The position numbers were made by a program, and so were the translations under genes. A stretch of 64,000 nt of DNA from Pseudomonadota bacterium (GTDB lineage: Bacteria; Pseudomonadota; Alphaproteobacteria; Rs-D84). The notes beneath the pieces were generated by a model. It saw only the letters and a list, made by a program, of their open reading frames with translations, searched no databases and was not told the origin of the DNA. The stretch spans positions 59,604-123,603 of the forward strand of contig JAEXCU010000013.1 of the NCBI GenBank assembly GCA_023402015.1, given 5' to 3'. Shown piece after piece: positions 10,480 to 53,904 of this stretch. The first letter of the stretch is position 1; each line of letters begins with the position of its first letter.

Positions 10480-10497
10480 TTTACACGGGCAACAATA

Positions 10498-40266: not shown

Positions 40267-40918
40267 GTTGATTTCTTTTGATAAAATCCCCAGTACACAG
40301 ACATATGCGTTGGATATGGTTGCATATGGCCAGGCATCTGACCGTACCGTCATTATGGCCGAGGCCCAAAGTGCCGGCCGGGGCCGATATAAACGGCAAT
40401 GGGTTTCACATCACGGCAACCTGTATACCAGTTTTATTTATTATATGGAAGAACGTGATCCGCGTCTGTCGTACGTGGTGGCGGTGGCGATTGTAGAAAC
40501 ACTGATATCATATGGTGTGCAACCAACAATCAAATGGCCCAATGATATCTTGGTGGATGACAAAAAAATCTGTGGCGTGTTAATTGAATATGCCGGGTCT
40601 TTTGTTGTGGTGGGAATTGGCATAAACATCAAAACAAATCCAACAGTTGAAAAATACAAAACAACAAAACTGGAAAATTATGCAAACGTGGCAAAGCCAG
40701 ATTTGCTGAACAGGTTAATGAAGAATTTAGATAAATGGATGGCGGCCGATTTTATTTCTGTGCGTGCGCGATGGATGGAATTGGCAGCCGCATTAAATAA
40801 AATTGTAAAATATCGCGGCGAAGAAGTGGAACTGAACGGTATAAATGAAAATGGTGCGTTGGTTTTACGACGTGGTTCACAATATTTCTTGGCGTATGGT
40901 GATGAAATAACGATGTAA
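40238..40918 (+). CDS. birA: biotin--[acetyl-CoA-carboxylase] ligase
   Basis: BPL motif AEAQSAGRGRYKRQWVSHHGNLYTS; no N-terminal HTH (group I BirA). Confidence 0.8.
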   Translation: MGFTVLASYKLISFDKIPSTQTYALDMVAYGQASDRTVIMAEAQSAGRGRYKRQWVSHHGNLYTSFIYYMEERDPRLSYVVAVAIVETLISYGVQPTIKWPNDILVDDKKICGVLIEYAGSFVVVGIGINIKTNPTVEKYKTTKLENYANVAKPDLLNRLMKNLDKWMAADFISVRARWMELAAALNKIVKYRGEEVELNGINENGALVLRRGSQYFLAYGDEITM

Positions 40919-41087
40919 AAATGGCGGATTTGTGCATATTACAAAATAACGGCTTGACTTTTATCGCGAATTATGATATTATATTTATATAAACAGTAAA
41001 GATTGTACCCACACCACGGTGTGGTTTTTTTTATTTCATTTTGGCCGCATTTTTATGCGGCCTGTTTTATTTAAAAGGATTGTTCGC

Positions 41088-41501
41088 ATGCAATTAAAAT
41101 TGATAAAAAATCCTGATGAAAACAGGGGCATAATTTATAAAATCGCGCGCGTAATATATACCGAAACATCTGCATCATCCCTGATTGCGGTTGAGGCATT
41201 GGCTGCGATGATTGCAAATCGCAGTGCGGCATTAAACCAATCGCCCATGGAAATTATCAATGATTGTGATTTATTTGAATCAAACAATCCCAAATCACCA
41301 CGACATAAACCAACGTCATCGGTGGATGTTAATTCGCGCGGTTTTTGTATGTGTTTGCGGGTTGTGCGACGCATGATGAATTCTGCGCTGGATGATGTAT
41401 GTAATGGTGCGACCATGTTTCATCACAGTGATTGCATGCCACAGTGGGCCGCGGCGCGTGGATATATCGCAGACATTGACGGGTTATTATTTTATGCATA
41501 G
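41088..41501 (+). CDS. cell-wall hydrolase, SleB/CwlJ (Hydrolase_2) family; putative endolysin
   Basis: ATG 41088 after AAAAGGA; IARVIYTETSASSLIAVEALAAMIANRSA ... MFHHSDCMPQWA, the Hydrolase_2 pattern. Confidence 0.65.
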   Translation: MQLKLIKNPDENRGIIYKIARVIYTETSASSLIAVEALAAMIANRSAALNQSPMEIINDCDLFESNNPKSPRHKPTSSVDVNSRGFCMCLRVVRRMMNSALDDVCNGATMFHHSDCMPQWAAARGYIADIDGLLFYA

Positions 41502-41733
41502 GGGGGCGTTGGTGAAAAAAATAATCAGCGGCGGATTCTTGGCAGGGCGCAGAACGTATGTGATATCTGCTGTTGGAATACTGTCGGCGGTGGGCGCATA
41601 TCTGGTGGGGGACACAGATATATTTACGATGTTGCAGGCAATCTTTACATTGGGTGGAATATATTTTCTGCGAAAATCAAGCCAAACAAAAGGAAGCGAA
41701 AATGGAAAAAATCCCAGAAAAATTTCTGAATGA
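41494..41733 (+). CDS. putative class II holin
   Basis: 79 aa, two TM helices (VISAVGILSAVGAYLV, FTMLQAIFTLGGIYFL), K/R-rich C-tail; ATG overlaps hydrolase stop (ATGCATAG); overlaps scaffold gene start by about 30 nt. Confidence 0.45.
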   Translation: MHRGALVKKIISGGFLAGRRTYVISAVGILSAVGAYLVGDTDIFTMLQAIFTLGGIYFLRKSSQTKGSENGKNPRKISE

Positions 41734-42358
41734 AGATGGCACATTAAATGCCGCGGCATTAATGAAGTCTTATTCAGAATTGGAAAAGAAAATTGGAACG
41801 ATGATTTCTGTGCCGGGTGATGATGCCGATGATGCATCACGTGAAAAATTTAAACGTGCAATTGGTGTACCGACATCACCGGATGAATATCCAACCAATG
41901 CAATATTTGATGACGATTCTGTTCGTCAAAAATTTCATGAAATTGGATTAACTGCAACCCAGGTTGAAAAAATTTATCAAATCGCCGAAGAATTTTTATC
42001 ACCTGTGCTGACAGAATTGTTCACAACGCAAAACGAAACAGGTGCGATGTCTGAATTAAAAAGTTTCTTTGGTGGTGAAGAAAAAATGAACGAAGCGTTG
42101 CATGCAATTGCCGCGTTCGGCCAACAGTTTTTACCCCATGATGCATTTGATGCATTATGCGCCACACCCCAGGGAATCCAAAGCGTTTACAACATGATGC
42201 AATCAATGGAACCACATGTTGAAACAGATAAAAATGCAGTTGAAAATTTAACAGATAATGATTTACGACGCATGATGCAGGACCCAAAATATTGGCGCGA
42301 CAAAGATCCAGAATACGTTCGCAAGATTGAAAGCGGATTTAAAAAATTATATTCGTAA
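41702..42358 (+). CDS. T7 gp9-like capsid scaffolding protein
   Basis: C-terminus MMQDPKYWRDKDPEYVRKIESGF aligns with T7 gp9 C-terminus AMSDPRYRTDANYRRQVEQKVIDSNF; acidic body; AAAGGAAG RBS. Confidence 0.65.
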   Translation: MEKIPEKFLNEDGTLNAAALMKSYSELEKKIGTMISVPGDDADDASREKFKRAIGVPTSPDEYPTNAIFDDDSVRQKFHEIGLTATQVEKIYQIAEEFLSPVLTELFTTQNETGAMSELKSFFGGEEKMNEALHAIAAFGQQFLPHDAFDALCATPQGIQSVYNMMQSMEPHVETDKNAVENLTDNDLRRMMQDPKYWRDKDPEYVRKIESGFKKLYS

Positions 42359-42458
42359 ATAAAATGCACTTTCTCCTTTACTAATTTTTATGTTTCCGAT
42401 AAAATATAAATCAAGAACAAAAAAATTTGTTCTATCCAAAAAATAAAAGGAGAGAAGA

Positions 42459-42716
42459 ATGGCATTCACATTCTTGAAGCCAGCCGCAAAGAAAACAGCT
42501 GCGAAAAAGCCAGCTGCGAAACCGGCCGCAAAAAAACCAGTTGCTAAAAAAGCACCTGCGAAAAAAGTTGCTGCTAAACCAGCCGCAAAGAAACCAGTTG
42601 CAAAAAAAGCAGCCGTAAAAAAACCGGTTGCCAAAAAAGCACCTGTGAAAAAAGTTGCTGCGAAACCAGCGGCAAAAAAGACAGTTGCCAAAAAAGCACC
42701 TGCAAAAAGAAAATAA
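42459..42716 (+). CDS. histone H1-like lysine/alanine-rich DNA-binding protein
   Basis: Tandem (P)AAKKPVAKKA repeats, 85 aa, GGAGAGAAGAATG RBS, terminator at 42721-42750. Confidence 0.65.
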   Translation: MAFTFLKPAAKKTAAKKPAAKPAAKKPVAKKAPAKKVAAKPAAKKPVAKKAAVKKPVAKKAPVKKVAAKPAAKKTVAKKAPAKRK

Positions 42717-42988
42717 TATAATCCCGCGTTTGCGGGATTTTTTCTTGTAATGCCCGGATAATCCCCCGGGCATTTTTATTTAAAAAAGTTTCAGTCTGAT
42801 AAGGCAACCCCCAGTCCGACTGAAATTTTTTTTTGGGACAATCCCGCGTGGACCCCGTGTTTTGTTTCATGGCGCACAATATGCATAACCAAAAAACAAA
42901 ATTTTAATCGGCATGCATTGACGCATCAATCACCGATGCGCGTTTTTATATCGCATGTCTGTTTTCATTTTTAACCAAAGGAATATGT

Positions 42989-43828
42989 ATGTCTGTTTCC
43001 ATAGATAACGTCTTCGTGAAACAATTTGAAGCCGACGTCCATTTGGCATACCAACAAATGGGCACAAAATTGCGCGCAACCGTGCGCAGCAAAACCGGTG
43101 TTGTGGGTGCATCCACGACCTTTCAAAAGGTTGGGCGCGGCACCGCCAGCACTAAATCACGTCATGGCATTGTGCCGGTGATGAATTTAAACCATGAACC
43201 TGTGGAATGTCTGTTGCAGGATTATTATGCGGGTGATTGGGTTGATGCATTAGATGAATTAAAAATAAACATAGACGAACGTCGTGTTGTGGCATCTGCG
43301 GGTGCGTATGCATTGGGACGTAAAACCGATGAATTGATTATCGCCGCCATGAATGGTGCAACCGCAACCGTTGGTGATTATTCAACCGGCCTGACCAAGA
43401 ATTTGATTTTGTCCGCCGTTGAAACGCTGAATTCCAAAGATGTTCCAGATGACGGCCGCAGATTCGCGGTTGTTGGGGTGCATCAGTGGAATGAATTATT
43501 GTCATTGGATGAATTTGTTTCCGCCGATTACATTGGCGACGATTTGCCATTGGTAAATGGTGGCGCATCAAAAAAATGGTTGGGGATTACATGGTTGTTG
43601 CATAACGATTTGCCGGTTAATTCTAATAAACGTGATTGCTTTATTTACCATGCCAGCAGCATTGGGCACGCATGTGGCCAAGATGTCAAAACAGATATTT
43701 CTTGGCATGGTGAACGCGCCGCGCATTTTATCAGCAACAGCATGTCCCAGGGTGCAGTTCTGATAGATAGCGACGGTATCGTTCGCGTTAAATGCAGCGA
43801 TGTGGATGCAACAAAATCAAATGAATAA
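42989..43828 (+). CDS. putative major capsid protein (by position after scaffold)
   Basis: 279 aa, strong AAAGGAATATG RBS, follows the gp9-like scaffold as gp10 does in T7; no direct motif. Confidence 0.45.
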   Translation: MSVSIDNVFVKQFEADVHLAYQQMGTKLRATVRSKTGVVGASTTFQKVGRGTASTKSRHGIVPVMNLNHEPVECLLQDYYAGDWVDALDELKINIDERRVVASAGAYALGRKTDELIIAAMNGATATVGDYSTGLTKNLILSAVETLNSKDVPDDGRRFAVVGVHQWNELLSLDEFVSADYIGDDLPLVNGGASKKWLGITWLLHNDLPVNSNKRDCFIYHASSIGHACGQDVKTDISWHGERAAHFISNSMSQGAVLIDSDGIVRVKCSDVDATKSNE

Positions 43829-43839
43829 AAGGATAATAC

Positions 43840-44070
43840 ATGGCGTTTCAAAATAAAAACCTGTCTGTAATTGCATATGCCAATGGATTTACATTATGGC
43901 ACTATGCGGCGAACGAAACAATGGCAACAATCAGTGCCAGTGGATATTTTAACAGTGTTAAAACGCTGATGAATGTTGGGGATATTGTAATCATCAATGC
44001 ATCTGACAATACGTCCATTAAAAAGGTTGGCATCACATCTGGCAATATTACGGTTGCGGCGCTGGCATAA
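43840..44070 (+). CDS. small virion-associated protein (putative)
   Basis: 76 aa ORF tightly packed after capsid gene. Confidence 0.4.
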   Translation: MAFQNKNLSVIAYANGFTLWHYAANETMATISASGYFNSVKTLMNVGDIVIINASDNTSIKKVGITSGNITVAALA

Positions 44071-44137
44071 AAAATACTGATGTTTAATATCGGGCCACAT
44101 TTTGTGGTCCGATTTTTATAAAAGATAAGGGCACAAT

Positions 44138-44656
44138 ATGCTGACGAAAATAGATTTATGTTCAATGGCATTACTGAAATTGGGCGAAAAACCAATTCAA
44201 TCTTTGATAGATGATAATGCCGCCGCGCAATTGGCACGAACGCTGTTTGACCCGGTTATGGATGCACTGATTGCATCACACCCATGGCGATTTGCGTGTA
44301 AATCGTATGATTTGATTAAAAATGCAGATGGTGATTTTTTGATACCGGCCGATTGCCTGCGCGTTGTGAAATGTAATGGCGAAATCATTGGCAACAGAAT
44401 TGTGGCGCGCGACGATGCTATTACGATACTGGCCGTAAATCGCGTTCCGGTTGAATCATATCCGGGGTATTTTGTATCCCTGGCGGCAACCAAATTGGCG
44501 ATGGAATTTTGTATTCCATTGATTGGTGAACAAACGGTATTTCGTATGTTGGCCGCATTATACGAAGATGAACTGCAATCTGCCAAATTCATAGACAGCA
44601 CCACATCCGTTGCACGCGACATAGAAAACTTTTCATTAATTAACGCACGTTTTTAA
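44138..44656 (+). CDS. putative tail/adaptor protein (position of T7 gp11)
   Basis: 172 aa; synteny only. Confidence 0.35.
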   Translation: MLTKIDLCSMALLKLGEKPIQSLIDDNAAAQLARTLFDPVMDALIASHPWRFACKSYDLIKNADGDFLIPADCLRVVKCNGEIIGNRIVARDDAITILAVNRVPVESYPGYFVSLAATKLAMEFCIPLIGEQTVFRMLAALYEDELQSAKFIDSTTSVARDIENFSLINARF

Positions 44657-46383
44657 TGGGGGAAATCATGGGAAATTTTATTAAAACACAAAATTCTTTT
44701 GCAGATGGCGAAGTGGCCCCGGAATTTTATGCCCGCGACAATATAAATGGATTATCCCGATTGGAAAATATGGACGTGCTGGCCGGTGGCGGATTAAAAA
44801 GACGCGCCGGTTTGGAACATGTTGCGGGTTTAAATTCTTATGCGCGCCTGATACCATTTTCTGTGGGCGAAGACGACGATTACCTGTTGGCATTGACCGG
44901 CGGTCATATATTGGTTTTTCACGACGGCGTTCAAATCCAGGATATTTTATGCGTGTGGCCGGCGGCGGCATTGGACAACCTGCAATATGCCCAGCGTTTC
45001 GGTACAATGATATTTGTACATCCCGACTATCAGCCATATGTTTTGAAAAAAACAGGTTCGCAATTCACAATATCTAAATTTAATTTTGCGATAAATGAAA
45101 ATGATATGTCGGTAAACATTCCGTTTATACGGTTTGATGACGCCAGTGGCATAAACATTACAATTTCGTCAAACAGTTTGGGTGGAAATTATGCAACATT
45201 TACAACCAACAAAGATTTTTGGACATCTGATAATGTTGGCACGCGATTGTTGTTATTAAACAAGCAATGGCGCATTGTGCAATATGTCAGTCCAACCGTC
45301 GTTTATGTATATTGTAATGGGCAATTCACAATACCGTCCGCCGCAGTGTCTGATTGGTCTGAATCCGCATTCAGTGAACGTCGTGGATGGCCATGCAGTA
45401 TAACATTTCACCAAGACAGATTGGTTTTTGGCGGTTCGCGTTCATACCCCAGTGGTGTTTGGTTGTCCCAGGTGGGACGTCATGATAATTTCAGTGTCGG
45501 CACCGGTCTGGATGACGAGGCAATATTTATAACCCTGTTGTCGCAACAGCGCCAGCAGATTTGTACCGTGGTCAGCAGCGATAACCTGCAAATTCTGACG
45601 TCTGTGGGTGAATGGGCAATTTCCAGTAAACCATTAACACCGTCTATGGTGGATATAAAACAACATACCGCCGTTGGCAGTGTGGCATCACGATATTTAC
45701 CGCCCCAGAAAATAGAAGGCGCCACAGTTTTTATTTCAGGCAGTAAAAAAGACATACGCGAATTAAGTCTGGATGAACTGGGGGAAAATTATAATGCGTC
45801 TGATTTATGCAGTTTTGCGAAACACTTAATGCAAAATCCCATAGACATCGCATACAACCAACAACGGCGACAATTGTTTGTTGTAATGGCGTCTGGCGAC
45901 ATGGCGGTATTAAACCAAAATTCGTCATTGGGAATATCTGCATGGGGGTCATATAAAACCCAGGGCAATTTTAAATCCGTTGCGGTTATTGCGGGGGAAA
46001 CATTTGTGGTGGTTGAACGCGGCGGCGAATTTGCATTGGAAAAATTTTCAGATTCGGCGTTAACAGATTCGGGCAACCGTGGTTTTTCGTTTGCCGCATC
46101 GGCGTTGCCGCTGCGTGGGTCAGGGCATAATGCGTCATTAATGCGCATTCGCAAAATTACTGCGCGGGTAATAAATACAAAAACACTGTTTATAAATGAA
46201 ATGCGTGCGTCATTGCCAAATGAAATATATACACCTGATTTGCCGGGATTCAGCGGGGATGCAGGTATAAATTTACTGGGGTGTCAGCGCAACTGTATCC
46301 AATCGCCATGGACAATCCAAAGCAGTGAACCATTACCGGCGACAGTACTGTCAATAACGGTGTATGGGTATTATATGGTTTAA
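44656..46383 (+). CDS. putative tail tubular/nozzle protein (position of T7 gp12)
   Basis: 575 aa; start overlaps upstream stop; synteny only. Confidence 0.35.
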   Translation: MGEIMGNFIKTQNSFADGEVAPEFYARDNINGLSRLENMDVLAGGGLKRRAGLEHVAGLNSYARLIPFSVGEDDDYLLALTGGHILVFHDGVQIQDILCVWPAAALDNLQYAQRFGTMIFVHPDYQPYVLKKTGSQFTISKFNFAINENDMSVNIPFIRFDDASGINITISSNSLGGNYATFTTNKDFWTSDNVGTRLLLLNKQWRIVQYVSPTVVYVYCNGQFTIPSAAVSDWSESAFSERRGWPCSITFHQDRLVFGGSRSYPSGVWLSQVGRHDNFSVGTGLDDEAIFITLLSQQRQQICTVVSSDNLQILTSVGEWAISSKPLTPSMVDIKQHTAVGSVASRYLPPQKIEGATVFISGSKKDIRELSLDELGENYNASDLCSFAKHLMQNPIDIAYNQQRRQLFVVMASGDMAVLNQNSSLGISAWGSYKTQGNFKSVAVIAGETFVVVERGGEFALEKFSDSALTDSGNRGFSFAASALPLRGSGHNASLMRIRKITARVINTKTLFINEMRASLPNEIYTPDLPGFSGDAGINLLGCQRNCIQSPWTIQSSEPLPATVLSITVYGYYMV

Positions 46384-46405
46384 TTTTTAACAATGGGGGA
46401 AAAAT

Positions 46406-46753
46406 ATGGGACAAATTGTTTCGGATGTAACATCCATTTTGGATTATAAAAAAGAAAAGAAAGAGGCCAAAAACGAAAGACAAAAAATCTTGGCTGAAAT
46501 GGCGGAAAATGAAAAGACAAAAACCAACCTGGTGAAAAAGGCTTTGGCGGCACAACGTGCCAAATATGGTGCGTCGGGGATGTCAAACCGCGGCATGACC
46601 GAAGGCGCCGTTTTAAAACGTTTAAAGAACGAAACAGAACAACCGTACAATGAAAAACGAAATGCCAGTTTGGAAAAATTAAGAAAAATAAAAGTAAATA
46701 AACCAAATCTATTGAAATCTTTGTTAAGCAGATTTGACGATTTGGTCGGTTGA
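46406..46753 (+). CDS. lysine-rich coiled-coil virion protein (putative)
   Basis: 115 aa, GGGGGAAAAATATG RBS. Confidence 0.4.
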   Translation: MGQIVSDVTSILDYKKEKKEAKNERQKILAEMAENEKTKTNLVKKALAAQRAKYGASGMSNRGMTEGAVLKRLKNETEQPYNEKRNASLEKLRKIKVNKPNLLKSLLSRFDDLVG

Positions 46754-46768
46754 TATAGGGGCACAGAT

Positions 46769-47317
46769 ATGCATAAAATTTCATATACCGGTGATGGCGA
46801 AACGAATGAATACCTGTTTGCTTTTCCATTTTTTCAGACGGGCGATGTGCGCGTTGCATTGAATAATGTTGTTCAGGATGCATCCAAATACAGTGTGATT
46901 GCCAACGAAGATTTTACCGGCGGCACCGTGGTTTTTCCGGCCCCGGTTGATACAGGCATTCAGATTGATATCTTTCGCCAGGTGTCTTTGACCCGTGTTG
47001 TTGATTATCAACCCACCGCCAAGATTGATCCAGAAAATCTGAACAGCGATTTTAATTTTTTATTGGCGGCGTTTCAGGACCTGCATGCGGTTGATATAGA
47101 CCTGGCCGAATGGGCGAATACACACGACAATGTGTTATCTTTTCTGCAATATAATTTACAGGTAATACAAGATAAACTGTCGGGTGGGTCGGTTATGGGG
47201 CTGTATCGTAATTTATTAACTGTGTTGGACAGTGCGTTGCCCACGTTGATAAATGATTATGGTTCCATTAACGAACCGGCGCCGGGTGAAAACAGTGATG
47301 ACTACGGCGTTTTATAA
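46769..47317 (+). CDS. tail fibre protein, T7 gp17 N-terminal (tail-attachment) domain only
   Basis: MHKISYTGDGETNEYLFAFPFFQTGDVRVALNNV... parallels T7 gp17 N-terminus (YQLDGSNRDFNIPFEYLARKFVVVTL); only 182 aa, no distal fibre domain. Confidence 0.6.
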   Translation: MHKISYTGDGETNEYLFAFPFFQTGDVRVALNNVVQDASKYSVIANEDFTGGTVVFPAPVDTGIQIDIFRQVSLTRVVDYQPTAKIDPENLNSDFNFLLAAFQDLHAVDIDLAEWANTHDNVLSFLQYNLQVIQDKLSGGSVMGLYRNLLTVLDSALPTLINDYGSINEPAPGENSDDYGVL

Positions 47318-47900
47318 TTTCTTGGATGAATGGAATGCATTGATTGGCATGAAAACGCCGGAACACCACCGTAAAATAATGGAATTTTTGGTGGCAACGT
47401 TAAATGATGCGCCGCATCGTGGGTTGCTGATGGCGTTTCGTCATTCGGGAAAATCAACCGTTGTGGGAATCTTTGCGGCATGCGTGTTATATTTGCATCC
47501 GGAAACCAGAATATTAATTCTGTCCGCGGAAAGCCGTTTGGCTGCACGCATGGTTGCGCATATTCGTCATATTTTGGAAAACCATCCGCGATGCAGTGAA
47601 ATGGTTCCCACAATAAAAAAAGAATGGGCGTCAGGACGCATCACAATCAATCGGCCGATTGGAATTCGCGAACCGTCCGTCGTATGCCAGGGTGTACATG
47701 GAAATATAACCGGTTTGCGCGCGGATTTAATTATTTGCGATGACGTAGAGGTTCCAAATACAACCAATACGGCACAAAAACGGGAAAACCTGCGGGAAAG
47801 GTTGCGGGAATTGGATTTTATATTATCACCCACCGGCACAATGATTTACATTGGTACGCCGCACACAACAGATACGATTTATCGTACAACGGAAAAGTAA
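47298..47900 (+). CDS. terminase large subunit, N-terminal ATPase fragment
   Basis: Walker A FRHSGKST, Walker B LIICDDVE, motif III-like YIGTPHT; ends abruptly after the ATPase core. Confidence 0.65.
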   Translation: MTTAFYNFLDEWNALIGMKTPEHHRKIMEFLVATLNDAPHRGLLMAFRHSGKSTVVGIFAACVLYLHPETRILILSAESRLAARMVAHIRHILENHPRCSEMVPTIKKEWASGRITINRPIGIREPSVVCQGVHGNITGLRADLIICDDVEVPNTTNTAQKRENLRERLRELDFILSPTGTMIYIGTPHTTDTIYRTTEK

Positions 47901-48581
47901 TTAAATTGATGTCGGTGCATCCGGTGCGTTGTCCGTGTCATACTGATCGCGGGTGCTGATAAATGTGCGCAGTTTGCCCAACAATTCTGTGCCTGCGTCG
48001 CCAAACATCGGCAGGTATGTTTCATATTCGGGCATGTCTGCCTGTAATTGCGCGCGCGCGCGTTCGGACAGTGGCTGATTTAACATATCACTGGCAACCT
48101 TCCACAGGAAATATGCCCGGTATGTTTTGGTGATGATTGACCATTTATCCAACAGGTCCGGTCGTTCCGCCAATGCGGCGCGTATTGCGACAATCCATTC
48201 ATCGCCAAATTTTTTAATAACGGGTAATTCCTGGATTTGGTCCAGGCCTGCCTGGTCGGGGGTAAATGCGTTAATACCGTTTTCCAATTCAGTCCATTCA
48301 GACGGCAATAATGGTACCGTTGCAACGGTTTCGGCCATCATGCCACCATATGGCAATAAATCGCGGTCAATGCTGTTCATTGGGGTTTTGCCACTGCGCA
48401 GGTTTGCAATGTGTTGAACCAAACTTTTGCCCGTGGGCAATTGTGATATTTCGTGCAGAACGTCATCATCCGCTTCGCCAATAAATATTTCATTAACAGC
48501 GGCCCAACCGCCAAATATAACGTGTTCTTGACGATACAGGTTTAATAATTTTTGTGCGACAACGCTGGCTTTTGGTTTCAT
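47901..48581 (-). CDS. hypothetical protein (last gene of dnaB-repressor module)
   Basis: 226 aa; co-directional with dnaB and repressor; function unknown. Confidence 0.45.
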   Translation of the reverse strand: MKPKASVVAQKLLNLYRQEHVIFGGWAAVNEIFIGEADDDVLHEISQLPTGKSLVQHIANLRSGKTPMNSIDRDLLPYGGMMAETVATVPLLPSEWTELENGINAFTPDQAGLDQIQELPVIKKFGDEWIVAIRAALAERPDLLDKWSIITKTYRAYFLWKVASDMLNQPLSERARAQLQADMPEYETYLPMFGDAGTELLGKLRTFISTRDQYDTDNAPDAPTSI

Positions 48582-48614
48582 TTCACAGTCCCCCCGGTTG
48601 TGATGACGAACGAA

Positions 48615-49622
48615 TTATTCCATAACAATCATGATAACCTTGTGCATGGTGCGGCCGATAATTTTTTCTTCGGGTGAAGATACCTGGCCGTACAGTTTGC
48701 CCTTGGAATCTGCACGCACACTGACAATTTGTGCGGTGGCGGTATCATTGGAATCCAAAGAATTAAAATCTGTATCAATGCAAACGGCCAAATCACCAAC
48801 GACCGGCGCAATGTTCGCGTCCGCAAATACATATGATTTTTCAGGAATAAATCCGCCCATTCTTTTGGTGTTTGGAACAACGGCATAAATACCCTGGCGG
48901 CCTTCCAGTGTTAAGGGTGCCACAATCATTGTTTTGTCAGATTTTTTGAAACTGATTGCTTTGCCAGATGGAACACCGAACACAGGCACCAATTTTTTAC
49001 GTGCACTGTCGTATAATTTTGCGCCATACAAACTGCTGTGCATGTCAATGCCAGACAATGGATTGCCCGGAATCAGAACGGATTTTACGCGTTCTTTGAC
49101 CTTGTTAATTTGTTTATTTAAATCACCAGATTTATACAGGGTTGCAATTTTATCAAACAATGCATCAACACTGTATGCAAAGGATTTTGCCAATGGTTCA
49201 ATTTCATTTTGGTAAACTTCGCGTTGGCCAACCTCTATCTTGTGATAAACGGACAGGGTCATGCCGGCGTCTTTGGCCGCCTGGGCAATTGTTTTGCCGG
49301 TTTGTTGACGGATTTTGCGCAGGCCACTGCCGAATATTTTCAGGCCGCTGTCTTCGTTATCATTCATACGGCGTTTGATTTCGTTTTGCCATTGATTTGC
49401 AACATCGTCAGATTCTTTGATAAATATATCGGATAATTTGCAACCCAAAATATTGCAGATATTCAGCAATTGTTTTTGGTTCAGACGACGTACGCCTTTT
49501 TCAATTTTGGATACCGCAGACAAAGACAAATTGGATTGACGGGCCAATTCGGTCATTTTCATGCCCGCCGCCAAACGAATATTTCTGATGTTATTTGGGA
49601 AAATTATTTCTTCTTGGGCCAT
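48615..49622 (-). CDS. CI/LexA-like repressor: two XRE HTH domains plus C-terminal S24-like domain (catalytic Ser apparently absent)
   Basis: HTH1 MTELARQSNLSLSAVSKIEKG, HTH2 IAQAAKDAGMTLSVYHKIEVG; C-terminus KRMGGFIPEKSYVFADANIAPVVGDLAVCID resembles the LexA GDSM...GDLVLVD block, but G-D-S-M is replaced. Confidence 0.6.
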   Translation of the reverse strand: MAQEEIIFPNNIRNIRLAAGMKMTELARQSNLSLSAVSKIEKGVRRLNQKQLLNICNILGCKLSDIFIKESDDVANQWQNEIKRRMNDNEDSGLKIFGSGLRKIRQQTGKTIAQAAKDAGMTLSVYHKIEVGQREVYQNEIEPLAKSFAYSVDALFDKIATLYKSGDLNKQINKVKERVKSVLIPGNPLSGIDMHSSLYGAKLYDSARKKLVPVFGVPSGKAISFKKSDKTMIVAPLTLEGRQGIYAVVPNTKRMGGFIPEKSYVFADANIAPVVGDLAVCIDTDFNSLDSNDTATAQIVSVRADSKGKLYGQVSSPEEKIIGRTMHKVIMIVME

Positions 49623-49687
49623 CGCACAACTCCTGTACTATCTTGACAAAATATTAGTCAATTTTTATATGCTTGGCAAGAAAATAA

Positions 49688-51247
49688 TTACAAACCAATG
49701 TCGTCGGGAATTGCGTTGGCGTCAATAATTTCTGGTGCAAAATCGCCATCAGATGGTGAATTGTTCTGTGCGCCAGAATTTGTAAATCCACCGGAAGGAT
49801 TGATTTCAATTTCATCCAGATTGTCAAACAAACTGTAATCGCCAAAGAACGCCAAATGAACACTTTCGGGACGGCCATGTCGGTTTTTTCCGATGATAAC
49901 ATCCGCCTTGCCACGGGCGCGTTCCAGACGTTTTTGATAACTTTCCTGGATTTTATCGTTGGTGTTGCCCGACAATCGTTGGGACGGATCGCGATTTTCC
50001 AAATAGTATTCTTCGCGGTACGTGAACATAACAATGTCGGCGTCCTGTTCAATAGACCCCGATTCACGCAAATCGGCCAGTTGCGGACGTTTGTCATCGC
50101 GGGATTCAACGCTGCGCGACAACTGGGACAGGGCGATAACCGGCACATCCAATTCTTTGGCCAGCATTTTCAGACCACGTGTGATTTCGGAAATTTCCTG
50201 GACACGGTTATCATTGCGCCGGCCACCGGGCGACGTCATTAATTGCAGATAATCAATTACGATTAATGCAATACCGCCCGCCTTGCGCGCCAGACGACGT
50301 GCACGCGTGCGCATCATGGGAACGGACATACCGGGGGTGTCGTCAATGAACAGTGGGACCTTGCTGATGGCGGCACTGTATTGCGACATTTTTAAAAAAT
50401 CTTCGTCTGTCAATGTGCCTTCACGCATGGCCGATGCCGGAATTTTTGACTGCGATGCCAAAACACGCGCGGCCAATTGCGATGCAGACATTTCCAAACT
50501 GAAAAATGCGACGGCGCCTTTGTATTTTTCATTGGCGCGTCCGTACAGAATTGCATTTGCGGCATTAAACGCAATATTCATCGCCAGGGTTGTTTTACCC
50601 ATTGCGGGACGACCGGCGATGATAATTAAATCACTGTGGTGCAGACCGCTGATGGATTTGTCCAACGCGTTTAATCCGGTGGTCAGACCGGATAATTTTC
50701 CGTCGGCCTTGTATGCGATTTCTGCCTCTTGTAATGCGGATTGTAATGCGGTTGCAATTGACGACACTTCGCGTTCAGATGTACCCGATGTCGCCATTTC
50801 AAACAGTTGTTGTTCCGCCAATTCAATTTGGCGCGAAACAGGATTGTCCAAATCTTCTATGAATGCAGAATCAGTTATTGATTGCCCCAGGTTGATTAAA
50901 TCGCGCCGTAATGCGTTTTCATAAACAATACGGCCATATTGTTCAACATTAACAACCGTTGCACCCGCACCAGATAATTGCGTCAGATAATCAACACCGC
51001 CAACAGATTCCAATGTTCCCTGTTGGTCCAGATAATTTTTCGCCGTGATTATATCAAACGGAATACCTGCGGCAAATTGGCGTTCGGCCAATTTATAAAT
51101 TTCTTGGTGCGCAGGATGGGAAAAATGTTCCGGTTTCAGGAATTCAGCAACGCGTTCCAGCGCGCGGTTATTCATCAATACCGCGGCCAGGACGGCCTGT
51201 TCTGCTTCCAGATTTGTTGGCAAAGTTTTGGGAGTAAAGTCCATGTC
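49688..51247 (-). CDS. dnaB: replicative DNA helicase DnaB
   Basis: N-domain LPTNLEAEQAVLAAVLM, Walker A IIAGRPAMGKTTLAMN, H4 motif, Arg finger; ATG at 51245-51247; C-terminal extension of about 50 aa. Confidence 0.85.
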   Translation of the reverse strand, partial: DMDFTPKTLPTNLEAEQAVLAAVLMNNRALERVAEFLKPEHFSHPAHQEIYKLAERQFAAGIPFDIITAKNYLDQQGTLESVGGVDYLTQLSGAGATVVNVEQYGRIVYENALRRDLINLGQSITDSAFIEDLDNPVSRQIELAEQQLFEMATSGTSEREVSSIATALQSALQEAEIAYKADGKLSGLTTGLNALDKSISGLHHSDLIIIAGRPAMGKTTLAMNIAFNAANAILYGRANEKYKGAVAFFSLEMSASQLAARVLASQSKIPASAMREGTLTDEDFLKMSQYSAAISKVPLFIDDTPGMSVPMMRTRARRLARKAGGIALIVIDYLQLMTSPGGRRNDNRVQEISEITRGLKMLAKELDVPVIALSQLSRSVESRDDKRPQLADLRESGSIEQDADIVMFTYREEYYLENRDPSQRLSGNTNDKIQESYQKRLERARGKADVIIGKNRHGRPESVHLAFFGDYSLFDNLDEIEINPSGGFTNSGAQNNSPSDGDFAPEIIDANAIPDDIGL

Positions 51248-52091
51248 AGATATAGTATATAAAAATTTTGCTTTTTCAACGCCTTTTTTGCATGGATATC
51301 GTGAATTAAGAATTCCGATTGTGGATGCCAATGGTGTGCCCGCGTGGCCGGATGTTTATCCGATTTCACGAATAGAAATGTTGCGTGAAACGGTTGGGCC
51401 GCGGCACTTTTCATCCCAGATGATGTTGGAATTCGTATCCATGGACCGGGCGCGGTTGGACCCGGATGCGTTGCACATGTATAATGCGGATTTTGATGCG
51501 CGCACGGCAAAAATTGGTGATAACCAAATTACCAGCGTGGTGGTGTATTGGGACCCGTCCACGGGACGCGCAGGACGCGACGGCAGTGTTTGCGTATTGC
51601 TGTATCGTGATGACCATGCGCGACGCGCATTCATTCACGATGTTGTATATCTGACCGTGTCAGACGGTGAACTGCACCCATTGGCGCGGCAATGCGAAAT
51701 GATATTGGATTTTATGCGCCGTCATGGTGTGGGGCGAATTATCATTGAGACAAACGGTATCGGAAACGCGTTGCCTGAAATTATGCGCGATGTCGCAACG
51801 CGCCGTGGCGCGGGTATTAATGTCCAGAAAATCACAAATAATAAAAATAAACAGACGCGAATCCTGGATGCGATTGAACCCGTGCTGACCACCGGGCGCC
51901 TGTATGCGCATGCGCGCGTTCAACATACACCATTACTGGCAGAAATGCTGGGGTGGTGCCCGATTGGGACCACCGGCCATGACGACGGATTGGATGCATT
52001 GGCCGGTGCAATAACGGCCGTGCCAACGCCCGTTCGCCCATTGGGTGGGCGTGTTCGCCCCATAATGGCAAATACAAATTTTACCATTTAA
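51243..52091 (+). CDS. terminase large subunit, C-terminal nuclease fragment
   Basis: RNaseH-like nuclease acidic residues VVVYWDPSTGRAGRDGS, IIIETNGIG, GHDDGLDAL (Terminase_6C pattern); GGGAG RBS; ATG 51243. Confidence 0.65.
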   Translation: MSDIVYKNFAFSTPFLHGYRELRIPIVDANGVPAWPDVYPISRIEMLRETVGPRHFSSQMMLEFVSMDRARLDPDALHMYNADFDARTAKIGDNQITSVVVYWDPSTGRAGRDGSVCVLLYRDDHARRAFIHDVVYLTVSDGELHPLARQCEMILDFMRRHGVGRIIIETNGIGNALPEIMRDVATRRGAGINVQKITNNKNKQTRILDAIEPVLTTGRLYAHARVQHTPLLAEMLGWCPIGTTGHDDGLDALAGAITAVPTPVRPLGGRVRPIMANTNFTI

Positions 52092-52174
52092 AGATTTGTT
52101 CAGATATTTCATATGGAAAATATCTGCCACAAAAATTATGCGAAATAAATTTGCAAAGAAAAAAGGATTTAATT

Positions 52175-53407
52175 ATGCAAACAGATTTAAATAATTTGCA
52201 GCAAATGTATCGTCGTGCGCTGGATGCGCGTTCGCCGTGGCTGGCCCGGTGGGACAGTGCAAAAAAATACACCATGCCAACCGCCGATGATGATTTGGCG
52301 GTTTTGTTTGACGCGACCGCGGCAGACGCGGTTGATAACCTGGCCGCGTCAATGTATTCATTGCTGACCCCGCCGGAATCATTATGGTTGAATCTGGTGC
52401 CGGAAAGTGATGCGTCGCCCGACGCCGCCACGGCAACGGGGGCACTGCGTGCGAACATAAACGATTCAAATTTTTATACGACAATTCATCAATGCTATCT
52501 GGATTTGGTGGTTTTGGGTACGGCATGTTTATTCATGTCGGAAAACCCAATTGGTGGTGCGTCTGCGTTTTCTTTTACCGCAATTCCGATGACGGATATC
52601 GCAATTCTGCCGGGGGCGGTTTTTCATACCACGTCCATGCCGGCGCGCGATGTTATGGAAAAATATCCCACATGGACACCACCGGCGGATTTACGCGATA
52701 AAATAAAAAAAGACCCCGATACCCCGCTGCGTTTGGTGCAAAGTTTGGTTAATACGGAATTTACCGCGTGGTTGGATGTGGGTGGGAATATACAAAACAA
52801 TATTGTGTCGCGTGGAACGTTTGAAACCAATCCGTATTTAATATTTCGCTGGTCGCTGGCCAGTGGTGAAATATACGGGCGCAGTCCGGTTATGCGGGCA
52901 TTACCCGATATTAAAACCGCAAACAAAGTCGTTGAATTGGTGTTAAAAAACGCAACCATTGCCGTTTCCGGCATATGGCAGGCCGATGACGACGGTGTAA
53001 TAAACCTGGCAAATATAAACCTGACGCCGGGTGCAATTATACCCAAGGCCGTTGGTTCATCGGGCCTGACCCCGCTGTCCGCCGGGGCCGATTTTGATGT
53101 TTCCCAGATAATATTAACAGACCTGCGCGATAGAATCAGACACGCATTGTTGGCGGACCGTTTGGGATTGTTGAGTGAAAAAGAAATGACGGCGACCGAA
53201 ATAATGGCGCGCAACGCCGATATGATGCGCATATTGGGTGCAACGTACGGACGACTGTTGCATGAATTTATCCGACCATTATGCGAACGCGGATTACAAA
53301 TTTTATCGCGTCGCGGTGTTATTCCAAAAATATCACTGCATGGCGATGCGGAATTAAAATATATTGCGCCGATTGCCCAAATGGCCGCGGCAGAAAATGT
53401 TATATAG
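52175..53407 (+). CDS. T7 gp8-like portal (head-tail connector) protein
   Basis: NLAASMYSLLTPPESLWLNL aligns with T7 gp8 NLASKLMLALFPMQTWMRL; about 410 aa; position after terminase. Confidence 0.6.
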   Translation: MQTDLNNLQQMYRRALDARSPWLARWDSAKKYTMPTADDDLAVLFDATAADAVDNLAASMYSLLTPPESLWLNLVPESDASPDAATATGALRANINDSNFYTTIHQCYLDLVVLGTACLFMSENPIGGASAFSFTAIPMTDIAILPGAVFHTTSMPARDVMEKYPTWTPPADLRDKIKKDPDTPLRLVQSLVNTEFTAWLDVGGNIQNNIVSRGTFETNPYLIFRWSLASGEIYGRSPVMRALPDIKTANKVVELVLKNATIAVSGIWQADDDGVINLANINLTPGAIIPKAVGSSGLTPLSAGADFDVSQIILTDLRDRIRHALLADRLGLLSEKEMTATEIMARNADMMRILGATYGRLLHEFIRPLCERGLQILSRRGVIPKISLHGDAELKYIAPIAQMAAAENVI

Positions 53408-53417
53408 GGGTAAAATC

Positions 53418-53609
53418 ATGAAAGAAATAGAATTAAATTATGCACGCTGCTTTGGTACCGCCGCGGGCGCCGCGGTATTGGCGCACCTGCGTCGGATTAC
53501 GATTGAACGTGCCCTGGGGCCGGATGCAACCGATGCGCAACTGCGTGGGTTGGAAGCGCAGCGCACCCTGGTACATCAAATTGAAAATATGATAGAGCGG
53601 GGTAAATAA
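53418..53609 (+). CDS. small hypothetical protein
   Basis: 63 aa, AGGGGTAAAATCATG RBS. Confidence 0.4.
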   Translation: MKEIELNYARCFGTAAGAAVLAHLRRITIERALGPDATDAQLRGLEAQRTLVHQIENMIERGK

Positions 53610-53611
53610 CC

Positions 53612-53869
53612 ATGTCATCACAGCAAAGCGCAATGGGCATTGTGGATTTTCTGCGCGACAGTTGGTTTTTAATTGCATTTATTGCCGGCATGATTTATTG
53701 GGTCGCGCGCCAGGATTCATCCCTGGCCGATATCCAGCGTGCCGACCAGCGTTTAACATCATTGGAAAACCGCACGACAATACTGGAAACAGGCATTGGC
53801 CAATTGCAGATAAAAATAGACGGCATCAAAGATGACGTTGCATTAATAAAAACCGCCGTTATAAAATAA
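53612..53869 (+). CDS. membrane-anchored coiled-coil protein (i-spanin/holin-like)
   Basis: One N-terminal TM (WFLIAFIAGMIYWV) followed by coiled coil; 85 aa. Confidence 0.4.
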   Translation: MSSQQSAMGIVDFLRDSWFLIAFIAGMIYWVARQDSSLADIQRADQRLTSLENRTTILETGIGQLQIKIDGIKDDVALIKTAVIK

Positions 53870-53904
53870 AGAATAACCGCCGAATTTTATTTCGGCGATT
53901 TTGT

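Follow-up and report, generated by a model that had tools for sequence, protein, structure and literature searches.

A T7-type large terminase encoded by two genes around a dnaB operon in the chromosomes of Candidatus Enterousia and relatives

The window analyzed here, a 64-kb stretch of DNA (64,000 nucleotides), is bacterial chromosome with a domesticated T7-like structural gene cluster and not a phage genome. In this cluster the large terminase gene (terL) is kept as two separate open reading frames (ORFs), with nothing lost and both halves intact. Three genes, among them a dnaB of predicted host type, lie between the halves on the opposite strand. We consider it probable that the two ORFs specify a functional two-polypeptide terminase in a domesticated, GTA-like element and that a host dnaB operon fills the gap between them. 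The features of the split are as follows.

47253..47900, + strand: TerL-N, ATPase core with Walker A, Walker B, and motif III (NF033889, T7 gp19 alignment)
47898..47903, no strand: junction 1, where the TerL-N stop codon TAA directly meets that of the 226-aa gene, which is convergent and reads TTA on the + strand
47901..48581, - strand: 226-aa protein, last gene of the dnaB module (conserved, dN/dS 0.16)
48615..49622, - strand: 335-aa candidate regulator bearing two XRE-type HTH domains plus a C-terminal domain (HTH_3 in two stretches)
49688..51244, - strand: DnaB replicative helicase, 518 aa, MDFTPK... (NF006606 equivalog)
51242..51245, no strand: junction 2, a CATG palindrome common to the divergent dnaB and TerL-C starts
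51243..52091, + strand: TerL-C, rest of the ATPase domain (residues ∼1-100) and RNase H-like nuclease (NF033889, PF22530, Terminase_6C)
51252..51279, - strand: candidate dnaB promoter, TTGAAA, 16 nt, TACTAT, 7 nt to the ATG (consensus scan)

The ORF list and profile searches assigned both pieces to one T7-type enzyme. The ORFs and motifs described in an earlier note on this DNA were all present in the window: FRHSGKST, LIICDDVE, and YIGTPHT in TerL-N (47253/47298-47900, +), whose conserved sequence starts near the ATG at 47298, and DPSTGRAGRDG, IIIETNG, and HDDGLDAL in TerL-C (51243-52091, +). TerL-N and TerL-C covered positions 269-461 and 481-709, respectively, of phrog_38, and positions 2-191 and 218-500 of the 500-position NCBIfam model NF033889 (termin_lrg_T7), for which TerL-N scored 225 bits (cut-off, 150). 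T7 gp19 residues 42-214 aligned with TerL-N. On L089, which encodes an intact relative of ∼500 aa, TerL-N residues 7-210 mapped to 9647-10261 and TerL-C to 10262-11167. Since the two ORFs abut exactly when placed against intact ∼500-aa relatives, no segment is missing and none is duplicated, and the proposal that the pieces are consecutive was thus borne out by both profiles and by the alignment. The same note had described the ORFs as an ATPase piece and a nuclease piece; an ATPase core and a nuclease are indeed present, but the break falls inside the ATPase domain, ∼8 residues past motif III and within a variable acidic loop. The break is not at the ATPase/nuclease hinge; the remainder of the ATPase domain lies in TerL-C, ahead of the nuclease. 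TerL-N ends 5 residues past the homologous ...GTPHTTDTIY.

AlphaFold2 predicted that TerL-N folds alone (pLDDT 85) and that TerL-C residues 75-260 form a confident nuclease fold, with the PhiV-1 terminase (8dgc_E) as the best fold match of both. TerL-C residues 1-70 were modeled at a pLDDT of 27-51, though many of them are invariant. We found at least 898 homologues of TerL-N, the best 120 of which were all 199-221 aa long, and 725 of TerL-C (almost all of the best 120 were 279-282 aa). No variation was seen in Walker A, Walker B, or motif III, nor at the acidic residues of the nuclease.

Both junctions are extremely compact. At junction 1 the window has zero intergenic bases, a 4-nt stop overlap (TTAA or CTAG) was found in 49 of 79 loci, and a terminator scan found none. 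At junction 2 the start codons of dnaB (51244-51242, -) and TerL-C (51243-51245, +) overlap, an arrangement conserved in nearly all loci, and the TerL-C Shine-Dalgarno sequence GGGAG is the complement of the dnaB codons Thr-Pro. An alternative dnaB start at TTG 51331 was rejected in favor of ATG 51244; L066 has stop codons upstream of the ATG. The candidate dnaB promoter sits in the first codons of TerL-C and is near-invariant in 31 short-type loci. Synonymous-codon entropy was 0.26-0.38 over TerL-C codons 1-30 versus a gene mean of 0.72, and it was normal past codon 30 and all along TerL-N. Part of the 5' conservation of TerL-C is due to the overlapping dnaB promoter and not to protein function. 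Promoter consensus hits for TerL-C and the portal gene were at chance level.

The three complete opposite-strand genes reported between the halves were confirmed. Profile scores matched the dnaB to the host-type chromosomal helicase: its 615 bits against the chromosomal equivalog NF006606 exceeded the cut-off of 540, whereas its 414 bits against TIGR03600 phage_DnaB fell short of the cut-off of 498.65. The 335-aa protein (73-89% identity among loci, dN/dS 0.07) had been called a dual-HTH CI/LexA-like repressor; the two HTH domains hold, but domain searches detected no S24/LexA-type domain. The 226-aa protein had no match in Pfam, PHROGs, NCBIfam, or PADLOC.

The split terL belongs to a T7-like (pelagiphage-Hodr-like) head, tail, and packaging cluster of ∼12.9 kb (41019-53869), whose other genes are listed here.

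41019..41501, + strand: cell-wall hydrolase (SleB/Hydrolase_2-like), first cluster gene (weak Pfam Hydrolase_2; phrog_938 endolysin)
41573..42358, + strand: T7-type scaffold (capsid assembly) protein (PF05396 Phage_T7_Capsid; dN/dS 0.21)
42989..43828, + strand: major capsid protein (PF19821, E 1e-71; phrog_3437)
43840..44070, + strand: 76-aa capsid-accompanying protein, p76 (phrog_18004)
44138..44656, + strand: tail tubular protein A, T7 gp11-like (PF17212 Tube; phrog_394)
44656..46383, + strand: tail tubular protein B, T7 gp12-like (phrog_376, E 5e-81)
46406..46753, + strand: 115-aa coiled-coil protein, p115 (in 76 loci; dN/dS 0.15)
46769..47317, + strand: tail-fiber N-terminal (tail-attachment) domain only (PHROG tail-fiber N-terminal matches)
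52151..53407, + strand: portal, T7 gp8-type head-tail connector (PF12236, E 2e-84; dN/dS 0.06)
53415..53609, + strand: Bbp19-like small phage protein (PF25181, E 6e-13)
53612..53869, + strand: 85-aa protein, p85, last cluster gene (conserved in 65 loci)

Host lipB (40238-40918) directly precedes the hydrolase gene, whose position is conserved in the loci. A strong terminator (44089-44113) follows the p76 gene, the homologues of which adjoin the capsid gene in relatives, and a bidirectional terminator (53875-53900) follows the p85 gene. Judged by eye, p85 has a hydrophobic stretch near its N terminus. Profile searches gave no family match for p115. Neither a small terminase nor T7 gp14-16-type ejection proteins were recognized in the cluster, and no integrase, phage replication gene, DNA polymerase, or RNA polymerase was found in or near it. 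The tail-fiber N-terminal gene was lost in a subclade (L007, L055, L063, L073, L074, L077, and L078). With no ejection proteins recognized and a fiber that is reduced and in some species lost, any particle made may fail to deliver DNA.

The hosts, Candidatus Enterousia and its relatives, are uncultured Alphaproteobacteria of the gut (order Rs-D84) whose genomes are smaller than 1 Mb (∼0.9 Mb, for OZ007020.1 and in PMC12306168). The earlier note had spoken of a T7-like packaging gene; the cluster is chromosomal and is flanked on both sides by housekeeping genes (LpxI, lipB, RNase E/G, PriA, and RecG). A relative was present in at least 550 species genomes, 80 of which, as species representatives, we fetched to compare the locus. 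Every sufficiently long locus had the order lipB, hydrolase, scaffold, capsid, p76, tubA, tubB, p115, fiber-N, TerL-N, [226-aa gene, HTH, DnaB], TerL-C, portal, p81, p85, as did ∼50 further contigs in IMG/VR. At least one species, L065, has lost much of the cluster to a deletion, and the cluster is therefore dispensable. Every cluster gene is under purifying selection, with dN/dS values of 0.08 for TerL-N, 0.14 for TerL-C, and 0.06 each for capsid, portal, and DnaB (host LipB, 0.12), computed over about 60-80 species from a saturated pS of ∼0.7 and a pN of 0.08-0.25. The capsid protein is 81-96% identical across species. Pairwise distances of LipB or DnaB correlated with those of capsid, portal, and TerL-C at 0.6-0.8, much as LipB did with DnaB (0.67). 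Across the species examined, the cluster thus co-diverges with host genes.

Outside the main group, terL is broken at the same point in two lineages (loci L141/L232 and L235/L236), both plainly two-gene arrangements without dnaB: in one, the ORFs are separated by a 335-bp noncoding spacer, and in the other, they overlap and are translationally coupled. The closest relatives outside the split lineages are intact terminases of ∼500 aa (44-53% identity) from genomes and metagenomes, all on bacterial contigs where the context was examined. Lone terL genes without structural neighbors occur in other bacteria. A limited literature search, which included the phrase "split terminase," found no published description of a two-piece large terminase.

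The Enterousia terL resembles T7 gp19 and the PhiV-1 TerL (NF033889, PDB 4BIJ, 8DGC) in family, fold, and motif order but consists of two polypeptides, totals ∼480 aa versus 586, and is chromosomal rather than phage borne. Chromosomal T7-like clusters of the alphaproteobacteria Azospirillum, Sediminicoccus/Roseococcus, and Micavibrio share the Enterousia cluster's capsid (∼55-63% identical), p76, tubA, tubB, TerL, hydrolase, portal, Bbp19, and scaffold genes; they differ in their intact TerL, T7-like order (portal first), and extra inserted genes. In phage databases, the closest relatives of the structural genes are Pelagibacter phage EXVC031P Hodr (capsid and portal identities of 44% and 31%) and fecal virome scaffold MT838907.1 (63% and 43%), which also have p76 and a Bbp19-like gene. 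The genes of MT838907.1 run portal, Bbp19, scaffold, capsid, whereas the Enterousia portal block follows the split terL. Hodr has a single 501-aa ORF (L082 8461-9966), annotated only as hypothetical, directly upstream of the portal gene, the expected place of terL; tblastn of both TerL halves against L082 gave no match, and we assume this ORF to be terL on the strength of its location and length.

Like the GTAs RcGTA, BaGTA, VSH-1, and FpGTA, the cluster combines phage-derived structural and packaging genes with a lack of replication and integration genes, and it is chromosomally fixed, vertically inherited, and under purifying selection, in Alphaproteobacteria as for RcGTA and BaGTA. It differs in its split terminase and in a nested host operon that is presumably essential. 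We take its origin to be a T7-like/pelagiphage-like podovirus and not the ancestors of RcGTA or BaGTA. A podovirus-like GTA, the FpGTA of Faecalibacterium, was recently reported (PMC12946183). As for the split itself, the proposed two-chain enzyme would resemble the T4 topoisomerase gp39/gp60 and the split genes of Nanoarchaeum, naturally split genes in which one enzyme, assembled noncovalently, comes from two separately translated genes; a permissive surface loop and a strongly reduced host genome are further likenesses. Unlike those genes, the terL halves are parted by a presumably essential operon on the opposite strand.

The earlier note had left two readings side by side, a terminase that is naturally two-piece and a mobile replication/lysogeny module. 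Our data favor the former: the halves are intact and under strong purifying selection, and the same break occurs elsewhere without intervening genes. A recent insertion of a satellite, moron, or transposon-like module into the terminase gene of a phage is highly improbable. The three complete genes on the opposite strand, a helicase and an HTH regulator among them, do superficially resemble a phage replication/immunity module, and a related lineage lacks them at the same split; however, the suggested target-site duplications were not found, with no direct or inverted repeats at either junction, nor did we find a recombinase or a compositional break. The DnaB scores as chromosomal, the surrounding DNA is bacterial chromosome, and the arrangement is the same in every sufficiently long locus compared, the module genes diverging in step with those of the host. 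Nor does it seem at all likely that terL is rejoined on demand, by excision of the 3.3-kb module in producer cells or by RNA or protein splicing (intron or split intein). Other bacteria do carry gene-interrupting elements that are excised in development, the B. subtilis skin element being one, and a lysing producer could afford to lose dnaB. Here, flanking repeats and a recombinase are missing, and no intron family or intein was detected, in agreement with the earlier note. Since TerL-N ends 0-6 residues past homology and TerL-C opens directly with Met and homologous sequence, neither end has room for an intein half. In addition, each half has its own stop codon, Shine-Dalgarno sequence, and start codon, conserved across species, and both of the other configurations clearly consist of two genes.

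A decaying prophage remnant, in which the interruption killed the terminase and its fragments persist where they overlap or border dnaB-operon signals, or through separate recruitment to other jobs, for instance as a lone ATPase or nuclease, is unlikely but deserves more weight. The dnaB promoter within the 5' codons of TerL-C, the overlapping gene ends at both junctions, the lack of recognizable terS and ejection proteins, the truncated fiber, the decay seen in L065, and the lone terL genes of other bacteria would all fit. Against it, purifying selection spans the full length of both halves and not just the overlaps, none of the catalytic motifs varies, conservation of portal, capsid, scaffold, and tail tube matches that of DnaB in strength, and the split is maintained where dnaB is absent. 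We give least credence to an active, inducible T7-like prophage with its remaining genes elsewhere or beyond the window. Head, portal, tail-tube, and terminase genes form a complete set, and IMG/VR pipelines call the region viral, but the flanks are housekeeping genes, integrase and DNA and RNA polymerases are absent, and the chromosomal position is fixed, with co-divergence across the species examined, in genomes of ∼0.9 Mb.

In the two-polypeptide terminase that we favor, conservation of both halves and the poor stand-alone model of the TerL-C N terminus suggest that TerL-N and TerL-C would act as a noncovalent heterodimer. TerL-N would supply the ASCE ATPase core, and the first ∼70-100 residues of TerL-C would dock on it, completing the ATPase domain and tethering the nuclease; this two-chain protomer would then assemble on the portal like a normal TerL. 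Judging from its genes, the most likely product of the cluster is GTA-like particles into which host DNA is packaged. We take the dnaB, dual-HTH, and 226-aa genes for a host operon that ended up between the two terL genes, an arrangement presumably now locked in by extreme compaction through the shared CATG start, the dnaB promoter in TerL-C codons, and the overlapping stops. TerL-C and portal would then have to be expressed either from a promoter within dnaB or by antisense read-through of dnaB. Speculatively, such dnaB-antisense expression could couple particle production to helicase shut-off.

The earlier note had described two plus-strand ORFs as ATPase and nuclease pieces of a T7-type large terminase (terL), separated by three complete genes on the opposite strand. 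ORF listing and profile searches recovered the ORFs, their motifs and the intervening genes, as follows:

47253-47900, plus strand: TerL-N, with conserved sequence from near the ATG at 47298; Walker A FRHSGKST, Walker B LIICDDVE, motif III GTPH.
47901-48581, minus strand: 226-aa gene, no detectable family.
48615-49622, minus strand: 335-aa protein with two XRE-type HTH domains (HTH_3).
49688-51244, minus strand: DnaB, start ATG (MDFTPK...) at 51244; PF00772 and PF03796.
51243-52091, plus strand: TerL-C, RNase H-like nuclease.

TerL-N matched positions 269-461 of phrog_38, positions 2-191 of 500 of the NCBIfam model NF033889 (termin_lrg_T7) and residues 42-214 of T7 gp19, and TerL-C matched positions 481-709 of phrog_38 and 218-500 of termin_lrg_T7. 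TerL-N scored 225 bits on NF033889 (cut-off, 150) and carries the Walker A, Walker B and motif III elements of the ASCE ATPase of a T7-type large terminase; FRHSGKST, LIICDDVE and GTPH were invariant across 31-61 species sequences. TerL-C provides the C-terminal RNase H-like nuclease with its conserved acidic residues: D104, E169, and D247/D248 of the 282-aa ORF were invariant in the species alignment, and PF22530 was detected by profile search (E, 1e-9). Alone, TerL-C reached 105 bits on NF033889, under the 150-bit cut-off set for the whole protein. A PDB sequence search with TerL-C gave zero matches, and a fold search was used in its place. Instead of both activities on one polypeptide of ~500-590 aa, the cluster has two same-strand ORFs with 3.3 kb between them, and each ORF has a separate start and stop.

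To locate the break, we searched 1.8 billion representative proteins for terminase relatives outside the Enterousia-type lineage, the nearest of which were intact terminases of ~450-510 aa with 44-53% identity. In an alignment with six intact relatives, TerL-N ended 5 residues past the conserved ...GTPHTxDTIY, and TerL-C started with Met followed by SDIVYKNFAFSTPFLHGY..., in one-to-one register with the acidic, variable linker of the intact proteins and with their conserved PFLxGF...RLxIP block. On a relative with an intact terminase (L089), the tblastn matches of TerL-N and TerL-C abutted at adjacent nucleotides 10261/10262. No terminase residues are therefore missing at the break, and the abutting alignment, together with the phrog_38 and termin_lrg_T7 spans, confirms that the two ORFs are consecutive segments of one terminase. 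A short duplication at the break (DTIYR versus DIVYK), suspected from the sequence, was discarded, as TerL-C residues 2 to 19 align one-for-one with the intact linker and the tblastn pieces abut without overlap. The earlier note had placed the break between ATPase and nuclease, which did not hold: TerL-C opens with ~100 residues of the ATPase domain, and its nuclease domain follows only after them. Because the two pieces abut in intact relatives with nothing missing or duplicated, the break falls in a permissive loop within the ATPase domain and not at the ATPase/nuclease hinge.

AlphaFold2 modeled TerL-N alone as a compact ATPase core (pLDDT, 85). In TerL-C, residues 75 to 260 (nuclease) were predicted with confidence, and the first 70 residues had a pLDDT of 27 to 51, in spite of which many of them are invariant across species. 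Such a combination of low pLDDT and invariance is the pattern expected of a segment that would fold only against a partner. The best structural match of both models was the terminase of the T7-like phage PhiV-1 (8dgc_E; TM-score of 0.77 for TerL-N), and the TerL-C nuclease model also fitted terminase nucleases in the fold search. The predicted structures thus agree with a break inside the ATPase domain.

We then evaluated how widely the split is conserved. TerL-N had at least 898 homologues, the best 120 of which were all 199-221 aa long with 76-85% identity, bar one near-identical match. Almost all of the best 120 of 725 TerL-C homologues were 279-282 aa long, so independent gene callers choose the same ATG. 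When each GTDB species was represented by a single genome, at least 550 genomes held a relative, and the loci of 80 of them were fetched. These organisms, from humans, ruminants, chickens, and rabbits, bear the name Candidatus Enterousia or are listed as uncultured gut Alphaproteobacteria; one relative is a circular genome of 958,618 bp (OZ007020.1). Enterousia belongs to the order Rs-D84, has genomes under 1 Mb, and is represented by uncultured organisms (PMC12306168). The whole gene order, including the three minus-strand genes, was identical in every sufficiently long locus of the 80 fetched, and the same arrangement was found in ~50 further IMG/VR contigs. Synonymous sites were saturated (pS, ~0.7) and nonsynonymous change was low. 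The dN/dS values, which are upper bounds given this saturation, were 0.08 for TerL-N, 0.14 for TerL-C, 0.06 for the capsid, 0.06 for the portal, 0.13-0.14 for the tail tube, 0.06 for DnaB, 0.07 for the HTH protein, and 0.12 for LipB, with a range of 0.06-0.23 over the cluster genes. Pairwise distances of cluster proteins correlated with those of LipB and DnaB at 0.4-0.8, about as well as LipB with DnaB. Together, the shared gene order, the low dN/dS, the invariant motifs, and the distances tracking host markers establish that the split is ancient, fixed, and vertically inherited and that both halves are kept by selection.

Several loci departed from the common layout. In one Enterousia species (L065; JAZLBQ010000007.1, 9665-14604), the cluster has decayed around the putatively essential operon: the capsid-to-fiber region and most of TerL-C and the portal are deleted, and TerL-N and the dnaB genes are kept. 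Extra DNA of 0.3-1.3 kb lies between TerL-C and the portal in four loci (L019, L056, L062, and L066) and after the portal in L027. Two contigs of the MAG JAZTWT01 (L036 and L039) each carry a cluster copy, with TerL-N at 75-76% identity, which suggests a mixed bin or two copies in one genome. A 402-aa TerL-C homologue from a metagenome (P0272) was rejected as a terminase fusion, its length being explained by an internal tandem duplication of ~120 nuclease-domain residues that is either an assembly artifact or real.

The cluster is embedded in a bacterial chromosome, not in a phage. Upstream lie LpxI, outer-membrane proteins, a tRNA methyltransferase, and lipB, with PriA further upstream, and downstream lie RNase E/G, RNase PH, an M48 peptidase, and RecG. 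Bounded by lipB and by a bidirectional terminator at ~53.9 kb, the cluster comprises, in order from lipB, a cell-wall hydrolase, scaffold, capsid, a 76-aa capsid-associated protein, tail tubular proteins A and B (tubA and tubB), a 115-aa protein, a tail-fiber N-terminal domain, TerL-N, the three minus-strand genes, TerL-C, portal, a Bbp19-like protein, and an 85-aa protein. Neither an integrase nor any phage replication gene, such as a polymerase, turned up when 41-54 kb and the flanks were annotated. For the 226-, 115-, and 85-aa proteins and for the C-terminal part of the dual-HTH protein, no family or solved-structure relative was found.

Some features of the cluster bear on its expression and its particles. 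Strong intrinsic-terminator-like hairpins in the scaffold/capsid gap (42720-42774) and just after the capsid and 76-aa genes (44089-44113) recall the terminator that T7 has after its capsid gene and suggest that genes within the cluster are differentially expressed. The tail fiber is cut down to a 182-aa N-terminal attachment domain (46769-47317), and its gene is wholly missing from one subclade (L007, L055, L063, L073, L074, L077, and L078), so that the way in which particles attach to cells, if they attach at all, comes into question. The downstream housekeeping genes surround, ~8 kb beyond the cluster, a gene (61875-63104) for a 409-aa protein carrying a phage-type lysozyme domain (GH108), which may be a host enzyme or else a lysis gene that became detached from the element.

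The helicase nested between the terminase pieces is of the host type. DnaB has the N- and C-terminal domains of a bacterial replicative helicase and exceeded the curated cut-offs of NF006606, the equivalog model of the chromosomal replicative helicase (615 bits; cut-off, 540), and of TIGR00665 (511 bits; cut-off, 385), whereas it fell under that of the phage_DnaB exception model (414 bits; cut-off, 498.65). Its start is the ATG at 51244 and not an upstream TTG, with stop codons in the upstream frame of a relative (L066), and across the loci it is as conserved as RNase E/G. The dual-HTH protein had been called a CI/LexA-like repressor, which we could not sustain: the two HTH_3 domains are present, but no Peptidase_S24 (self-cleaving) domain was detected, even when the C-terminal 161 residues were searched with E values of up to 10. 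PADLOC made no defense-system assignment in the three genes. A phage origin of these genes is unsupported, because a search of the related pelagiphage Hodr found no homologue for any of the three.

Terminases split without dnaB were found in other lineages. In a 31%-GC alphaproteobacterial genome whose longest contig is 1.05 Mb (L141, the same as L232), a related cluster with a 66% identical capsid lies beside lipB, at the opposite cluster end from that in the window. Its terL (8416-10261 in L141; 15369-17214 in L232) is split at the same residue into a TerL-N of 213 aa, ending ...GTPHTENSIYY, and a TerL-C of 289 aa, on the same strand and separated only by a 335-bp noncoding spacer. This spacer is AT-rich, with a terminator-like hairpin and repeated CTCCGAAAG motifs, and its folding gave a z-score of only -2.2. 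In another bacterium, two contigs of 0.31 and 1.47 Mb (L235, 8001-9480, and L236, 8001-9441) have a lone terL split at the same linker into a classic pair of translationally coupled ORFs: the start codon of TerL-C, an ATG behind a GGAGGAG ribosome-binding site, overlaps the stop of TerL-N (ATGGGTGA). Capsid and portal genes are lacking near these lone terL copies, which have housekeeping genes on either side and, beside them, a variable slot with defense-like genes (OLD-like/AAA_15 in one strain, Peptidase_M78 and Beta_protein in the other); L086-L088 have a similar lone terL, which is intact.

Many other related clusters, among them those on the main chromosomes of Azospirillum species, in Sediminicoccus/Roseococcus, and in a Micavibrio MAG, have an intact TerL. 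In IMG/VR contigs from isolate genomes (L152, L157-L162, and L165-L167), ~18-kb clusters have the order portal, Bbp19, scaffold, 3.4 kb, capsid, p76 (the 76-aa protein), tubA, tubB, 3 kb, intact TerL, and hydrolase; their capsids are at least 90% identical across many Azospirillum species, on replicons of ~3 Mb. Together with the similar clusters of Sediminicoccus/Roseococcus and Micavibrio, they may be further domesticated T7-like elements. In neighbor-joining trees, which are rough and cannot decide between a single and several origins of the split, the L141 capsid was sister to the Enterousia clade and the three split lineages fell in one region of the TerL tree. The splits of L141/L232 and L235/L236, which have no dnaB, show a two-gene terminase to be viable in its own right, and the dnaB operon fills the gap rather than defining the split.

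At both ends, the minus-strand genes are interlocked with the terminase. At the left junction, TerL-N and the convergent 226-aa gene end in directly adjacent stops in the window; in 49 of 79 loci these stops overlap by 4 nt (TTAA/CTAG), and no terminator was found between them. At the right junction, the divergent dnaB and TerL-C starts share a CATG palindrome in almost all loci, and the TerL-C Shine-Dalgarno sequence GGGAG is the complement of the dnaB codons Thr-Pro. The first ~25-30 TerL-C codons have a normalized synonymous entropy of 0.26-0.38, versus a gene mean of 0.72, and their minus strand contains a near-invariant TTGAAA, 16 nt, TACTAT, 7 nt, and ATG. TTGAAA/TACTAT is thus a plausible candidate dnaB promoter giving a leaderless mRNA, so that the promoter of a putatively essential gene may be written into the terminase coding sequence. 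A consensus promoter scan gave 39 matches versus 34.8 expected, a total at chance level; this candidate was the only match backed by conservation, and none could be named for TerL-C. Among the 80 loci (region 51245-51330), ~31 species have the -10 element 7 nt from the ATG and are apparently leaderless, and ~42 species have a 15- to 18-nt insertion that adds 5-6 residues to the TerL-C N terminus and an AAGGA ribosome-binding site for dnaB. Given the interlocked layout, TerL-C and the portal would have to be transcribed either from inside dnaB or by antisense read-through of all three genes. Any interference of cluster activation with dnaB expression is speculative.

The earlier note had offered two readings of this arrangement, a mobile replication/lysogeny module (satellite or moron) or a naturally two-piece terminase, and the second prevailed, both halves being conserved and under selection and the split being also present without dnaB. 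Target-site duplications, which a mobile module could have left, were sought at 47890-47910 and 51225-51250, and no repeats were found. Profile searches and PADLOC detected no recombinase among the three genes, and there was no compositional discontinuity. Presence/absence polymorphism was likewise lacking: the genes occur in all sufficiently long loci and the ~50 IMG/VR contigs, and among the loci compared they are absent only from the distant 31%-GC lineage. These observations, with the host-type DnaB and the lack of homologues in Hodr, led us to reject the mobile module, and a recent insertion is contradicted by the same absence of repeats and fixation among relatives. Rejoining of terL by excision or splicing fares no better: junction repeats are missing, Rfam introns gave only subthreshold chance matches in 40-55 kb and in the L141 spacer, and there is no room for intein halves, as TerL-N ends 0-6 residues past homologous sequence and TerL-C opens with Met and homologous sequence. 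These results agree with the earlier note, which had set aside an intein or intron.

The best-supported interpretation is that the cluster is a domesticated GTA-like element of T7 type whose large terminase consists of two noncovalently associated chains. TerL-N and TerL-C would assemble as a heterodimer, the cluster would produce particles that package host DNA, and its activity may be coupled to dnaB by regulation. As in GTAs, phage-derived head, tail, and packaging genes reside on the chromosome without replication or integration functions, and the structural genes are vertically inherited under purifying selection. A GTA is further defined by particles that package essentially random host DNA, without preferential transmission of the whole cluster, and by their release and the transfer of markers to recipient cells. 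The main rival is a nonfunctional remnant, or pieces recruited for other jobs, against which stand selection along the full length of all structural genes, the invariant catalytic residues, and the retention of the split where dnaB is absent. An active prophage is contradicted by the housekeeping flanks and the fixed locus across species. A more elaborate scenario strikes us as rather unlikely: the cluster would found a new family of T7-like-podovirus GTAs with a heterodimeric terminase, interlocked with an essential dnaB operon through the shared CATG, the in-codon promoter, and the overlapping stops, and particle production would send antisense transcription through dnaB and the regulator, so that the producer stops replicating.

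In the literature searched, we found no account of phage-derived clusters in Enterousia/Rs-D84, of alphaproteobacterial GTAs of T7-like type, or of large terminases that are split in nature. A recent paper describes a GTA-like element in Faecalibacterium that is podovirus-like (PMC12946183), and both GTA-like domestication and split genes are already known as general kinds; the present case adds the T7-type origin, a terminase broken within the ATPase fold, and a putatively essential host operon nested inside. If the interpretation as a domesticated element is true, a natural viral packaging ATPase exists as two chains broken inside the ATPase fold, a ready system to dissect the communication between ATPase core, lid, and nuclease. 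In annotation, cluster genes in Rs-D84 genomes should not be labeled prophage, pseudogene, or contamination. The nesting of a putatively essential replication operon in a phage-derived operon would be unusual as a regulatory architecture. An alphaproteobacterial GTA-like element of podovirus origin would extend the few known GTA families to a widespread uncultured gut lineage, in which ~10 kb of phage genes under strong selection in genomes under 1 Mb would imply a real benefit.
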